Part shown: positions 16,890 to 63,335 of the stretch, one piece after another
Layout: each line of letters opens with the position of its first letter
How positions within the stretch are numbered: the stretch's first letter is position 1
Sequence record: OZ413487.1
Length of the DNA stretch: 64,000 bases
From: a phage
Strand: one strand, 5' to 3'
Program-made: the position numbers and the translations under genes
The notes under the pieces: model-generated
Seen by the model: the letters and a program-made list of their open reading frames with translations, nothing else
Told to the model about the DNA's origin: nothing
Databases searched by the model: none

Positions 16890-17380
16890 GGCGTTACAAC
16901 GGCATACGGGGCGCTTAAAAAATTTTTAAAGAAGTACTTGCATCATTCCCGACAATATGGATAATAAGAGTTGTCGAGGGGGAGGCCCCCAATCGTTGAC
17001 CAGATAGATAGGAGTTAAAATCATGGCTATTGTTACCGCTGGCTATCTTCAAAGATGCGGAAGCAAAACAACGCCGGATCTCAATACATGAGATCATCAA
17101 CCTTAACGCTGGAGGCACACCATACCGCCCAGGACCTGGCCGTGAGATGGACAATACGCTAGCGATCCTGAAGATACGCCGTAAACGGTCCTCCCTTACT
17201 CTGGACTCATTACACACAATGCAGCCTCCGTTCCAGGTGACCGGGAAACGGATCGCCAGGTCCTGGACAAAGGCCAATGATCGGACCGTATAAATAAAAG
17301 TGTTTTGGTACTGATTTTGGGGTTGACTTGTTCGGCCCCTTTTGCTATTCTTATTAAACGGGCGGCACTTGGGAACAGGG

Positions 17381-17400
17381 GGAGACAATCACCGGGCCTG
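17381..17400. repeat. GC-rich 20-mer, right copy of the exact inverted repeat pair
   Basis: ggagacaatcaccgggcctg is the exact reverse complement of 9942-9961. Confidence 0.6.
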
Positions 17401-17510
17401 CCTGTCATATAAGAACTATAAAAACCGTTGACATCTGCCATGGGGTGGGGTAACATTTATCTTGAAGGGGCAAAAGTGCCCACACAACAACCAAGAGAGA
17501 GGAAAACACT

Positions 17511-17783
17511 ATGTCAAACTGGATTAATCAAGAAGTCGAATCACGTTTTAATGCTATTTGGGATCTCATCGAAAAAGAAGACGGCACATCAAGCCCCTAC
17601 CTCAACAATTTGGAATTCCATTTTGTGGAAGCGATGAACGCAGAACATGATCACGAAGGTGGCGCGGATGAGTTCGCTAAAGGTTATGGCTTTAACAATG
17701 CCAACGAAATGATCGAGGCGGTAGTACTCCAGGCTGAGGAAGATTATCAACTAAAAACGCTTGAATTCTGCCGCCGCAAGTAA
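17511..17783 (+). CDS. hypothetical protein
   Basis: 90 aa; AGAGAGGAA SD; TTGACA at 17428. Confidence 0.55.
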   Translation: MSNWINQEVESRFNAIWDLIEKEDGTSSPYLNNLEFHFVEAMNAEHDHEGGADEFAKGYGFNNANEMIEAVVLQAEEDYQLKTLEFCRRK

Positions 17784-17843
17784 TAAGATAATGACACGGG
17801 CCAAAAGGCCCACTAATCAGAACCGCACAAAGAGGTAAACATC

Positions 17844-18107
17844 ATGAAACGTCTTGATCAGCTCAAATTAGTTCAATATATGGCTTATCGTGTTCTTGAA
17901 GTCCAGAAAGGTAGCAAAAAAGAGGTTTGCGAGAAAGCTTATAAGATCTTCACTCGCAAAAAAGATGACTGGATGCTACGCCAGACTAAAAAGGCTGACA
18001 TCTTGGGGTACCTGGAAGAAGAGATCCGCCTTGAAGAGCAAGAAGAGATCCGCCGTAGTGAGGCAGATTATCAGGCAGCTTGGGAAAACTGGATGAGCAA
18101 CAAATAA
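17844..18107 (+). CDS. hypothetical protein
   Basis: 87 aa; AAGAGG SD; K/E-rich. Confidence 0.55.
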   Translation: MKRLDQLKLVQYMAYRVLEVQKGSKKEVCEKAYKIFTRKKDDWMLRQTKKADILGYLEEEIRLEEQEEIRRSEADYQAAWENWMSNK

Positions 18108-18126
18108 TACAACAAGGTGCACGGTC

Positions 18127-18151
18127 AGGGGCTTAAAGCCCCTTTCTTTTT
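18127..18151 (+). terminator. rho-independent terminator
   Basis: aggggc-ttaa-agcccct hairpin then TTCTTTTT. Confidence 0.65.
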
Positions 18152-19019
18152 GTCTCCTCTTTTCCTACCACAAATGGCCCCGCCTGGCAAATGGAATAAT
18201 CAACAAGCCAGCAATTAACCCCACTGTACAAACATACATATAAAATAACTATTGCATAATTTTTCATTGTGTGGTAGCAGTGCCATTTTTACACGTTTTT
18301 CCTTCCAAAATTGCACGTAATGCAGCATTTGCACAAAATTTAACCTGATGCATATCTTCAATAGCTTGTCAACAACTAAAAATCTTTATAAGTCATACAC
18401 TTACATAACTACAAAAACGTTTTCTACGTGAAAAATCGAGTATAACTATAGCCGCCAGATCTCAGAATTTACGTACGCTCGCCATTCTATAGCCTGCTAA
18501 GCATTTATTCCAACCATAGAATAACGGAATAGTCAATACCTGCATAAAATAATTATTCGTGTAAACTGCATAACATAAATCGGCCCAGGTGTCAACATTT
18601 TTCGTAAACAGTCTGGAATTGTCACGTTAGGTTACCATAAGCAGAGAAATCTTTAGTCGTCTAATGTTTACTGTACATTACTATACTGACTGGAATCATT
18701 AGATGACTAAGAGAAAGATAAGAAATAATTAATAATGTAATTATTTTACCTGTAACAATAAGGCAACTATGCAAACGAATGGCATGGCGCGACGGAGTCG
18801 CGACATAATATAAAAGCAGTAACCATCACCCCCGTGATAGTTTGTCTGCAAACTATTAATCAGATCATAGTTGCCTTGTATTTAGTTAATCATGACATGA
18901 CAAGCAAGGCAACTATAGATCTGCTAATAGTTGCCCTGCTTTTATATTATGTCATGCTAATTATAATCAGTGCGATTATTGTCATGTATAATTATTGTCA
19001 TGCAAACGAATGGCATGGC

Positions 19020-19160
19020 TGATTATCGGTGTGTAAACAGTCAATCATGTAAATGGTTAGCATGTGAACAATCAGGAATGTAAACAATCCAGTGTGTAAA
19101 CTAATAGGTGTGTAAAAGTGTCATGTTGTGTCAGTTAGGTCACATTATGTCAGACAAGTT
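19020..19160. repeat. iteron-like array of (g)tgtaaac(a) motifs
   Basis: At least six tgtaaaca/tgtgaaca/gtgtaaaa variants within about 140 bp, flanked by 18-bp direct repeats gcaaacgaatggcatggc at 18771 and 19002. Confidence 0.5.
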
Positions 19161-19395
19161 TTTCTCCTCTTTGTCAAGTGCTGCATGAAAAATTTACAAG
19201 CTTGTATGGTAGCATTTTTGCGGCCCTGTTTACATTCAGTAATGTATGTATAATCCTTGTTGTGTGGGCGTTTAGACGTCTAGACGGTTGGAAGTCCACA
19301 GGTCAATATCTAATCTATCGGCTGCTAACTATATCCCACACAAATAGTAAGAAATATGATTGTTATATGCGTAAACTGTAACTCATGTTATCAAT

Positions 19396-19765
19396 CCCTG
19401 TATGGATCGCCAGTGGTGCGCATAATAGGTATTATGTTAAATTGCCCGTAATGATAACAGTTCTCACAATGATAGGTATTCTCATTCATCCACACAAAAT
19501 AGGTTGCAAATGTTGTGCCACTGTGTGAACGGCCTGGCCTATTAATTTCTCTCACTGCCTCGATATTTGAGAATTGTTATCCCTGTATGGATCGCCAGTG
19601 GTGCGCATAATAGGTATTATGTTAAATTGCCCGTAATGATAACAGTTCTCACAATGATAGGTATTCTCATTCATCCACACAAAATAGGTTGCAAATGTTG
19701 TGCCACTGTGTGAACGGCCTGGCCTATTAATTTCTCTCACTGCCTCGATATTTGAGAATTGTTAT
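19396..19765. repeat. perfect tandem duplication, 2 x 185 bp
   Basis: Unit ccctgtatgg...gagaattgttat at 19396-19580 repeats identically at 19581-19765. Confidence 0.85.
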
Positions 19766-20823
19766 AAGAATGAGAAGTATTCCCATTCCGTCCGCCTGGC
19801 AGCACTCCTGTAGGTCCTGCAAGGACTCTAGCTGAAAGCTAGACCCTTCGGGCCTCCCTGTAGGTCAGGTCAAAATCGTGGTAGAATTGGGCCTGTTCAG
19901 ATATTTCTGGCTGACTCTTCAGGTCTGTGTGGGAAAAGCCAACCTCTCCGGCGGGGCAGGGGGTCATGACGGGAAAATTGCAGGTCAATTAAAAAATTTA
20001 CGTGGTGTATGAAGCGCTCTTCAGGTAAGGCATGTATTATGGGATGAAACCCTCTTCAGGCAATGATATTTGTGGGTGTGATATTTGCTGGAAAGCCAGA
20101 TATGACGGGACTCCCGGCGGGGATGGGGTAGTACAGACAGGGAAAATATGAGAATGTAGTTGGGGAAATTGATCAGACAGGTAGAGTATGGAATATGTTA
20201 CAAGTATGTTAAATATGGAGGTTGAATATCTGTAGGATTTGTGTGTAAAATCAAAGACTTAAGGGGTGTTGTGGTATTTTCTATAAATAATTCAAGTTTA
20301 ATAGGCAATATTTGTCTCTATCCGCTTTGTGTGGTAAACAGATTCAGATTAGATTGGTTTACAAGTGTATACATAATATACAAATTAAAGATACAAGAAA
20401 CCCCCCTCCCCCTTCGGCTACCATTCACCTTTTCCTCTGACTGGTACTTAAACACTTATTCAGACTCTTCAGGTTATCACCCATATATCATATGGCAGTG
20501 ACTGGTGTCCTCCGGCCCCTCTTTCGTCACCCGTCCGCTTCGCCATGCTAATGCCATAGCCAATGGTTCGGTTGTTCACTCTGTTCACTCAGGTGTATCT
20601 CCATACCCCTTCAAACCGAAGAGAACAGAAAACCCGAATTACTCGGTAAAAGAAAAGAGAAGAACTTAATTTTATCAGGATAGGCAAGAATGTCAAGGCA
20701 TGACTGCTCACTAAACAAGCAAACAGTCATGTGTGGAAGGTAAGTGATTGTGGTGGTGGGAAATTTAGTTGAAAGATGTGTTATAGGTGCTCCCAGCACT
20801 TTAGCCGGGTAGCTAATTGTGTG

Positions 20824-21039
20824 TCAGTCCAGTGGTTCATCACCTACTTCACTGAAATCAATGTTCATGGTCTCCTCCCAACCATCAATCTCAGCACCAG
20901 AGTAGAGATCTTTAGGACTTACTCCCAAAGCATCAGCAACAGAGTCCATATTTAACACCTCTGGCAGGTATGATTCATCGAATTCAAGGTAAATCAGGCC
21001 ACGAGTGTTGTCAGCTCCACCAAATATTTCTATCTTCAT
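20824..21039 (-). CDS. hypothetical acidic protein
   Basis: Start trimmed to ATG 21039 after GAGGAG SD (track 21105). Confidence 0.5.
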   Translation of the reverse strand: MKIEIFGGADNTRGLIYLEFDESYLPEVLNMDSVADALGVSPKDLYSGAEIDGWEETMNIDFSEVGDEPLD

Positions 21040-21159
21040 GAAATCTCCTCTGGGAATGAGAGTGTGAACAGGGTTTATACGTTCCAATGCGCTGGAATTA
21101 TGCACGTTTGCCTCTTCAGGCCATGCTTCAGCATGAGGAACCTGTGTGGGCTCGGTGCT

Positions 21160-21372
21160 TCATAGTCTACCACCCCTGAACTCTTCGTGCTCAGGCATAA
21201 TAGAGAACCAGATATCTACGATGTCTTCCCACGTCAGGTCATCAGCCTCAGGATCTACCTGGAGCGAAGATGAAGAATCTTCAGAATCGAAGTTTTCCTC
21301 TTGCACTGGCTCAGTCAAGGGACATATAGTCACTCCTTTGGATGTCTCTTCAGATGCATGTGTGTTTATCAT
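21160..21372 (-). CDS. hypothetical acidic protein
   Basis: 70 aa; start overlaps the stop of an upstream micro-ORF (ATGA). Confidence 0.4.
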   Translation of the reverse strand: MINTHASEETSKGVTICPLTEPVQEENFDSEDSSSSLQVDPEADDLTWEDIVDIWFSIMPEHEEFRGGRL

Positions 21373-21458
21373 GTTCCACCCGTGAGTATTCCGGCAACAG
21401 CTGCTATGGACGTAATGATCATCAGGATCACCACTAAAACTTCGGACAATGTTCTCAT
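21369..21458 (-). CDS. 29-aa hydrophobic peptide
   Basis: Below track cutoff; GGAG SD 9 nt upstream; coupled to 21160..21372. Confidence 0.3.
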   Translation of the reverse strand: MRTLSEVLVVILMIITSIAAVAGILTGGT

Positions 21459-21732
21459 TGTGTACTCCATATTCTACAAACTATGTGTGGATACTATCAC
21501 TGGATCGGTAATGTGTCAACAGAAACGCCGCGAGGGTTTGGTTAAAATCCGAGCGTATGGTGATTTGGGTCAAAACGGACGTGCGTTCTCGCTACGCTCG
21601 AAATATGGAGTTGTTTGTAGGGAGCTCTTAAACGCTCTGTAATGAAATTAACTACCCAAGGTATGCAATCGTGCACCAGACAAAGAAAAGGACGCCACAG
21701 AGCGTCCTAGGTGTCTTAAATTTGATATTTTG

Positions 21733-22032
21733 CTATACCCACGAGGGCTTATCAAGGTTGGAGTAGCTGAAAGGTGTCAAAAGGTGACTGTCAAAATCTC
21801 TCAAACTATCCAAATCTTTTTCCTCGTCCTGACACCATCTGTGCCTACATTTGTTGTTGTAGTGCATGGAATGCATAGCGTTCTGCAACTTAACAGGCAC
21901 AAGTGATTCAGGAGTAGATAGTATTGTTGGGTATGCCAGAACCACCTCAAACAGTGGAAACACATCGAAACTAAAGTCTACCTCTGCAGAGGTTGATGGC
22001 ATATAGGAGTATTTAGCCGCCTTTGTAGACAT
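21733..22032 (-). CDS. hypothetical protein
   Basis: ATG 22032 after GAGGTGG SD (track 22044). Confidence 0.45.
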   Translation of the reverse strand: MSTKAAKYSYMPSTSAEVDFSFDVFPLFEVVLAYPTILSTPESLVPVKLQNAMHSMHYNNKCRHRWCQDEEKDLDSLRDFDSHLLTPFSYSNLDKPSWV

Positions 22033-63236: not shown

Positions 63237-63335
63237 GCTAGGTAAGCCCTTTGGCAAGGGCGAGGATTTTTAATCCTGAAAATAGACGAGGTAGTCGTTG
63301 AATACATAGGTGGTTCGATTCCATCACCTAGCACC
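63237..63335 (+). tRNA. atypical tRNA-like element (possible tRNA-Lys TTT with long insertion, or pseudo-tRNA)
   Basis: Perfect 7-bp acceptor gctaggt/acctagc, good D-arm and T-arm (TTCGATT), but weak anticodon stem and about 30-nt insert before T-arm; no complete CCA. Confidence 0.3.

Follow-up and report, generated by a model that had tools for sequence, protein, structure and literature searches.

A probable direct terminal repeat flanked by short-repeat arrays in the gene-free zone of an rV5-like phage genome

The stretch of DNA analysed here, hereafter called the window, comprises 64,000 nucleotides of the phage sequence record OZ413487.1 and contains a gene-free zone of 2716 bp (positions 18108-20823) on which a block of + strand genes and a block of - strand genes converge. 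By comparing this zone with the genomes of related phages, we found that it is very probably the end region of a linear, non-permuted chromosome, organised as a T7-type concatemer junction and packaging region in which a direct terminal repeat (DTR) would occupy positions 19153 to 19796. The window belongs to an rV5-like phage (Vequintavirus): the interval 18100-20850 (2751 bases) matches 122 phage records with 90-97% identity, nearly all of them from rV5-like myoviruses of Escherichia (genus Vequintavirus), with genomes of about 137 kb. A more sensitive nucleotide search of the zone returned the same 122 Vequintavirus-level records and none outside this group, and a single scan of IMG/VR for more distant relatives matched one contig.

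The location of the DTR was obtained from the ends of related records. In the HdK5 record, the first 459 bases are exactly the last 459, and the two ends map to window positions 19796 and 19153. In the Gotham record, a repeat is annotated whose copies occupy 1-459 and 136567-137025, which corresponds to the locus of the DTR in the window. The end bases are identical in the three independently deposited records of HdK5, Gotham and Pr121LW: marking the end by a slash, the left one reads ...ATGTCA/GACAAGTTTTTC and the right one ...CCGTCCGCC/TGGCAGCAC. In at least 12 records, the beginning or the end falls precisely on window position 19153 (TGTCA/GACAAG) or 19796 (CCGCC/TGGCAG), and the records opening or closing inside the zone, which come from several laboratories, always do so at one of these two positions. 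Because the ends of HdK5, Gotham and Pr121LW map there to the base, the interval 19153-19796 can in all likelihood be identified as the DTR, and the zone would hold the physical ends of the genome. The database record of the phage studied here was not opened at such an end. The zone consists successively of right-arm unique sequence (18108-19152), one copy of the DTR and left-arm unique sequence (19797-20823), and therefore reads like a concatemer junction. The gene blocks on either side of it are both transcribed toward the ends.

Terminal repeats are already known for this genus, having been reported in close relatives. Terminal redundancies of 458 bp were described for HdK5 (PMC6563267), and terminal repeats of 459 bp with one specific packaging start for Gotham (PMC7471380). 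The DTRs of HdK5, EdH4 and Gotham (458/459 bp; GenBank MK373780, MK327930 and MT682716) are homologous to that of the window with 93-95% identity, have the same boundary bases and lie at the same place between converging gene blocks. The window differs from them by an extra 185-bp copy within the repeat, as well as by the position at which its record was opened.

A more distant comparison was provided by the Klebsiella phage KPP-1 (Mydovirus, Vequintavirinae), for which a T7-type DTR of 514 bp was determined from twofold coverage and PhageTerm (PMC9862379). As in the window, this DTR lies in a gene-poor zone, of about 1.8 kb, between converging gene blocks. Taken in reverse orientation, the KPP-1 region shows weak collinear similarity to the window, and its DTR boundary aligns base-for-base with window position 19153, a score reached by none of 500 shuffles. 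KPP-1 would thus offer independent, cross-genus support for the left boundary. The two phages also carry on the same side an oriented motif, GAC[T/A]CTTCAGGTC, and a G-run. They differ in the length of the repeat, in the left-arm flank, which in KPP-1 measures about 330 bp and has no counterpart of the window interval 20400-20720, and in the flanking repeats, which have a period of 27 nt in KPP-1. The flanking genes are unrelated, no homologues of the KPP-1 flanking proteins being found around the zone of the window.

Several points weigh against this interpretation of the zone. The ends of the phage studied here are deduced from relatives that are 93-97% identical to it, and the submitters of some of the 12 records may have adopted the orientation of earlier ones, in which case not all of the 12 would be independent. 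For one Vequintavirus, headful packaging with partial permutation was inferred by PhageTerm (PMC13211470). At the right boundary, the likeness to KPP-1 (GTCCGTC/TAGCA against GTCCGCC/TGGCA in the window) is not significant, since 126 of 500 shuffles do as well. Finally, a strict need for the iteron array that adjoins the left boundary is doubtful, because only 1-3 degenerate copies are left in phages nom and FFH2. The features of the zone and of its flanks are collected in Table 1.

Table 1. Features of the gene-free zone and nucleotide diversity among 14 sequences (window coordinates; the slash marks the presumed cut)
Feature	Position	Strand	Diversity	Remarks
Intrinsic terminator closing the + strand gene block	18127-18143	+		hairpin AGGGGCTTAAAGCCCCT then T-run; annotated in Alma, HdK5 and Gotham
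A+T-rich gene-free spacer, right genome arm	18144-18750		0.09	G+C about 0.37
Block with a perfect 20-nt direct repeat at its two ends	18769-19019			copies at 18769-18788 and 19000-19019
Six TGTRAA(Y) iterons, 15-16-nt period	19032-19117	+	0.27	immediately outside the left DTR boundary
Four KGTCA repeats, 9-10-nt period	19119-19152	+		the fourth stops at the left cut site TGTCA/GACAAG; P ~4e-6
Probable DTR	19153-19796		0.03-0.06	644 bp here, 459 bp in relatives; sequence expected at both virion DNA ends
Perfect tandem duplication, 2 x 185 bp	19394-19763	+		wholly inside the DTR
Hypervariable stretch	19797-19870		0.20	immediately outside the right DTR boundary; identity down to 0.28-0.60
Two degenerate repeat units, ~80-110 nt	19900-20150	+	0.048 (CTCTTCAGG units)	GAC/CC-CTCTTCAGG, TGTGGG, GAAAGCC, CCGGCGGGG(CA/AT)GGGG, GGGAAAAT
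A+T-rich spacer, left genome arm	20161-20399		0.062	
Ultra-conserved block	20400-20720	-	0.012	against 0.14 at third codon positions
C6TC5 tract	20401-20412			within the conserved block
GACTCTTCAGGT copy	20463-20474			within the conserved block
Weak hairpin with U-run	20646-20634	-		within the conserved block
Near-consensus sigma-70 promoter	20696-20669	-		TTGACA-16-TGaTAAAAT, 11/12 positions, extended -10; reads toward the DTR
Fifth CTCTTCAGG copy	21112-21120	+		first intergenic gap of the - strand block
Third codon positions of four flanking genes			0.14	
Codon positions 1+2 of four flanking genes			0.08	

The zone was aligned with 11 to 13 relatives and its nucleotide diversity was compared with that of four flanking genes. 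The DTR is conserved, and the DNA directly outside both of its boundaries is hypervariable. These two junction-proximal stretches turn over by gain and loss of repeats. Most of the zone is under stronger constraint, and evolves more slowly, than the adjacent protein genes. The A+T-rich spacers stand at 0.06-0.09, and the right-arm spacer varies about as much as the flanking genes do at codon positions 1+2.

On the left side of the DTR, the perfect 20-nt repeat ATGCAAACGAATGGCATGGC brackets an inverted-repeat block, its second copy abutting the iteron array. The initial annotation of the window had described 18-bp direct repeats flanking the iterons: the repeat is indeed present, but it is 20 nt long and encloses the inverted-repeat block instead of the iterons. 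The inverted motif that it had listed, AAGGCAACTAT, was found in four copies of alternating orientation (18760, 18867, 18906 and 18927). These copies are part of a composite palindrome (18782-18957) with perfect 18-nt arms at 18802-18819 and 18936-18953, whose computed single-strand DNA fold has an energy of -51.5 kcal/mol versus -20.2 for shuffled sequences (z = -10). Phage FV3 lacks positions 18789-18999, i.e. the sequence between the 20-nt direct repeats, which it has apparently lost by recombination between them. The palindrome block is dispensable, because FV3 has lost it. Absence from a close relative, which the initial annotation had named as an argument against a function of the zone, thus concerns this block and not the rest of the zone.

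Between this block and the left cut site, the TGTRAA iterons start at 19032, 19048, 19063, 19079, 19095 and 19111, with spacings of 16, 15, 16, 16 and 16 nt. Six copies in this interval, against 0.06 expected (P ~1e-10), constitute the densest such cluster of the 64 kb and bear out the iteron array annotated at 19020-19160. In 14 relatives, the array comprises 1 to 11 copies over 123-228 bp with the core GTAAAC retained, and its diversity exceeds that of third codon positions. The sequence ...GTCAGACAAGTTTT at the left cut site is present in 14/14 sequences. The iteron and KGTCA arrays reach the cut site with changing copy numbers and with a fixed core motif and junction sequence.

The duplication located inside the DTR was confirmed as a perfect 2 x 185-bp tandem repeat with 100% identical copies. 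It is because of this internal duplication that the DTR measures 644 bp instead of 459. The unit is single-copy in 11 relatives examined by BLAST and in the IMG/VR contig L018, and the annotated DTR of Gotham is 459 bp long; in total, the duplication was seen in none of the 13 relatives checked directly. When the junction between the copies served as query, it aligned to the 12 records listed only in two joined pieces. An assembly artefact is the less likely view. In its favour, the copies are strictly identical, they sit in a repeat with double read coverage and no relative examined shares them. Against it, none of the duplication borders (19394, 19579 and 19764) falls on a DTR end, a TGTTAT microhomology is found at the junctions as expected of slippage, and real duplications exist within the terminal repeats of T7-like phages (PMC5923468). 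The duplication thus looks like a real slippage event that lengthened the DTR from 459 to 644 bp.

On the right side of the DTR, relatives differ within the hypervariable stretch by insertions and deletions between the short direct repeats GCAGCACTC / CTGTAGGTC, a turnover that mirrors that of the repeats on the left side. Further right, the degenerate repeats of about 100 bp that had been annotated near 19900-20110 were recovered as the two units of Table 1. They share GATATTT..CCGGCGGGG..GGGAAAAT, and each region contains CTCTTCAGG, whose copies are not in register in the pairwise alignment. For this last motif, the window has 8 occurrences where 0.55 would be expected, and 19915-21120 contains 5 of them. 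It extends to an oriented 13-mer, GAC[T/A]CTTCAGGTC / CCTCTTCAGG, found in five copies on one strand (19913-19925, 20014-20025, 20049-20060, 20463-20474 and 21109-21120) and confined to the left-arm end region. In KPP-1, its copies (1690, 1742 and 2700 of sequence L017, - strand) occupy the homologous side and are oriented as in the window. Two functions were considered for CTCTTCAGG and rejected: as a transcription start, it lies at inconsistent distances from -10-like hexamers, and as a terminator loop, the stems are inconsistent in the window, although two KPP-1 copies sit in terminator-like hairpins. The same flank carries all GGGGNNGGGG runs of the 64 kb, i.e. four overlapping matches at three loci against 0.59 expected (19953-19962, 20119-20128 and 20401-20412). 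Together they are contained in a 460-bp section of the left-arm flank, the G-rich strand being the + strand for two of them and the - strand for the third. The locus at 20401-20412 is the poly-C tract annotated near 20398-20412, found here as C6TC5. All the repeat features of the initial annotation were thus retrieved at or near the positions that it gave.

The most conserved part of the zone, the 321-bp block 20400-20720, ends at a G5AG6 run on the side downstream of the promoter. Its near-invariance marks it as probable functional DNA, and over this block we found no Rfam family, no stable fold (z = -0.5) and no coding-like pattern of changes in its open reading frames (ORFs). One might imagine a transcription-primed origin or end-replication element, in which a host promoter would fire toward the DTR and the transcript would cross G5AG6 (as an RNA-DNA hybrid or quadruplex) and enter A+T-rich DNA, where its 3' end would prime a T7-like polymerase and primase-helicase, with GACTCTTCAGGTC as the binding site of an end-region protein. 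The ColE1 RNA II and the mitochondrial CSBII element follow the same logic. We regard this scenario as a long shot.

If the zone is a T7-type junction, the following sequence of events can be proposed. Genomes would be joined into concatemers through the DTR, by replication or recombination. A terminase would cut at TGTCA/GACAAG on the left boundary and at CCGCC/TGGCAG on the right boundary, and the DTR would be duplicated by strand-displacement synthesis, yielding two copies per virion as in T7 and T3. More tentatively, the KGTCA array, with its phasing of about 10 bp, might together with the 16-bp iterons abutting the left cut site serve as recognition or positioning sites of the packaging complex, because short helix-phased repeats lead up to the cleavage site. 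With similar caution, the oriented GACTCTTCAGGTC and G-run units and the DTR-facing promoter might act as accessory signals in packaging, replication priming or transcription. No terminase gene was detected among the window proteins scanned, i.e. the ten largest ORFs. Among the roles suggested by the initial annotation was a packaging or injection-arrest site. The packaging part is supported, in a more specific form that it had missed, namely a DTR with the genome ends and the flanks of both cut sites. Injection arrest of the T5 type takes place inside a terminal repeat of about 10 kb, which is the first DNA to be transferred in a two-step entry, and, with a repeat of only 459-644 bp, has no architectural support in the window.

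We also considered that the zone might contain small protein genes missed by annotators. It extends from the last + strand gene (17844-18107) to the first - strand gene (20824-21039), and sporadic coding sequences of 36-75 amino acids, one of them labelled 'structural protein', have been annotated there in ev146, APCEc02, Alma, Pr121LW and Gotham, but not consistently from one record to another. ORF integrity and the numbers of synonymous and non-synonymous changes were analysed over 12 genomes. The ORFs of the zone, 30 to 86 amino acids long, are broken in most of 11 relatives or accumulate mostly non-synonymous changes (e.g. 7 synonymous for 34 non-synonymous), unlike the control gene 20824-21039, which shows 19 synonymous and 14 non-synonymous changes in the same test. 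In the spacer 18144-18750, ORFs are broken in 9/12 sequences. Those intact in all sequences lie only in the near-invariant block, where intactness is uninformative. Because its ORFs are interrupted or about four-fifths non-synonymous in their changes, the zone appears to be genuinely gene-free, in agreement with the roughly 2.7 kb without credible ORF annotated at the convergence of the two gene blocks, and hidden genes are very improbable.

The two other roles put forward by the initial annotation, a replication origin and a cluster of non-coding RNAs, found less favour. The zone could be or contain an origin if the iterons bound an initiator beside A+T-rich DNA, or if a transcript initiated at the promoter 20696-20669 and running through G5AG6 primed a T7-like replisome in A+T-rich DNA. 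T7 origins consist of a promoter plus A+T-rich DNA. The regular iteron array does adjoin A+T-rich stretches, the near-consensus promoter lies inside the block of lowest diversity, the three GGGGNNGGGG loci of the window are grouped at 19953-20412, and the products encoded by rV5 include a DNA polymerase of family A and a primase-helicase of the gp4 type (PMC3606486). Conversely, DnaA boxes (TTWTNCACA) are not enriched (11 against 8.9 expected), the two matches of the zone corresponding to GTGTAAAA motifs read on the reverse strand, the first inside the iteron array and the second at 20242. A search for an initiator gene next to the iterons found none: the surrounding 900 bp are devoid of genes, and Pfam recognised no domain in the small proteins encoded nearest to them. 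The iteron copy number ranges from 1 to 11, and the turn of the GC skew coincides with the change of gene orientation, to which the rV5 authors attribute it (PMC3606486). An origin is therefore unlikely. No Chi site was found in the zone, and the FtsK-orienting sequence GGGNAGGG was not counted as enriched (9 against 4.3 expected, only 2 of them in the zone). Equally unlikely is the presence in the zone of genes for one or several non-coding RNAs, for instance an RNA of about 260 nt starting from the promoter 20696-20669. This promoter is strong and fully conserved, with an extended -10, and the 260 nt downstream are tenfold less variable than synonymous-type sites without being coding-like. 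Against this, Rfam 15 gave no match at E-values up to 1 over 17000-22000 and, at E-values up to 10 over 20300-20800, only chance-level hits of 11-15 bits for thresholds of 45. The folding z-scores of four candidate stretches on both strands (-0.5, -0.5, +1.7 and +0.2) are no better than those of shuffled sequences, a convincing terminator is absent at the end of the conserved block, and no tRNA or transfer-messenger RNA was found in this region. The block is moreover too invariant for a covariation test. The proposal of a cluster of structured RNAs was thus not upheld; an unstructured transcript from the conserved promoter is possible.

The reading of the zone as a T7-type junction also accounts for earlier descriptions of this locus. 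On the rV5 map, a 'non-coding' box drawn between genes 163 and 164 corresponds to the same locus (Kropinski et al. 2013, PMC3606486). Its authors described a box without ORFs, at the change of skew, in which no bidirectional terminator was found, and did not identify the DNA ends (PMC3606486); here, the box is explained as a probable DTR plus its flanks. With T7/T3-type junctions, the window shares a short non-coding DTR, variable arrays of short repeats abutting both copies of the repeat, and duplications and poly-C inside or close to it; fixed ends may be a further common point. Arrays of short repeats also adjoin the terminal repetition of T7 itself, and hairpin priming has been put forward as a model of how the repeat is duplicated. 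In the T7-like Yersinia fPS phages, a conserved non-coding DTR has internal duplications and poly-C, and variable short-repeat arrays flank both repeats (PMC5923468). In T7, transcription into the junction, where the RNA polymerase pauses, contributes to the start of maturation (PMC3276506), and the promoter of the window likewise reads toward the junction. The window differs from T7 in belonging to a 137-kb myovirus that uses the host RNA polymerase and has no sequence similarity to it, in having end genes transcribed outward, where T7 early genes read inward from the left end, and in having far longer gene-free flanks, of about 1 kb on each side.

Within the literature searched, the description of the DTR flanks appears to be new: no account of the flanking arrays was found there, the two reports on HdK5, EdH4 and Gotham (PMC6563267, PMC7471380) giving the repeat length only, and no transcriptome was found for the genus. 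The gene-free box of rV5-type genome maps, unexplained since 2013, would now have an explanation, and, for this group of phages used in therapy, most of the approximately 120 records in the databases would be opened at arbitrary points and not at true ends. Exact cut sites and candidate recognition arrays should help annotation, phage engineering and the study of T7-style packaging in a large myovirus.

Several minor observations were made on the neighbourhood of the zone and on the related records. In the - strand block right of the zone lie genes for ribonucleotide reductases, ThyX and ligases. Between 18107 and 18108, where the zone starts, rV5, FFH2, ECP26, nom, ev147 and Pr121LW have an extra gene of 420 nt (rV5 gp159 and homologues), which the window does not have. 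Several GenBank records give the 87-residue protein encoded at 17844-18107 the label 'DNA translocase FtsK'. This label was considered as a hint of a DNA-binding partner and set aside, Pfam giving only sub-threshold noise and no FtsK domain; it looks propagated and wrong. Nineteen 'Campylobacter phage' records (GenBank MG0656xx; host mostly C. jejuni) are 90-96% identical to this region of an E. coli Vequintavirus, and are probably mislabelled or contaminant E. coli phages. Finally, a tRNA cluster at 62.8-63.6 kb contains six ordinary tRNA genes, and ARAGORN predicted inside it, at 63237-63335, a tRNA-like gene of 99 nt, left without an assigned identity, with a four-base anticodon (atcc).

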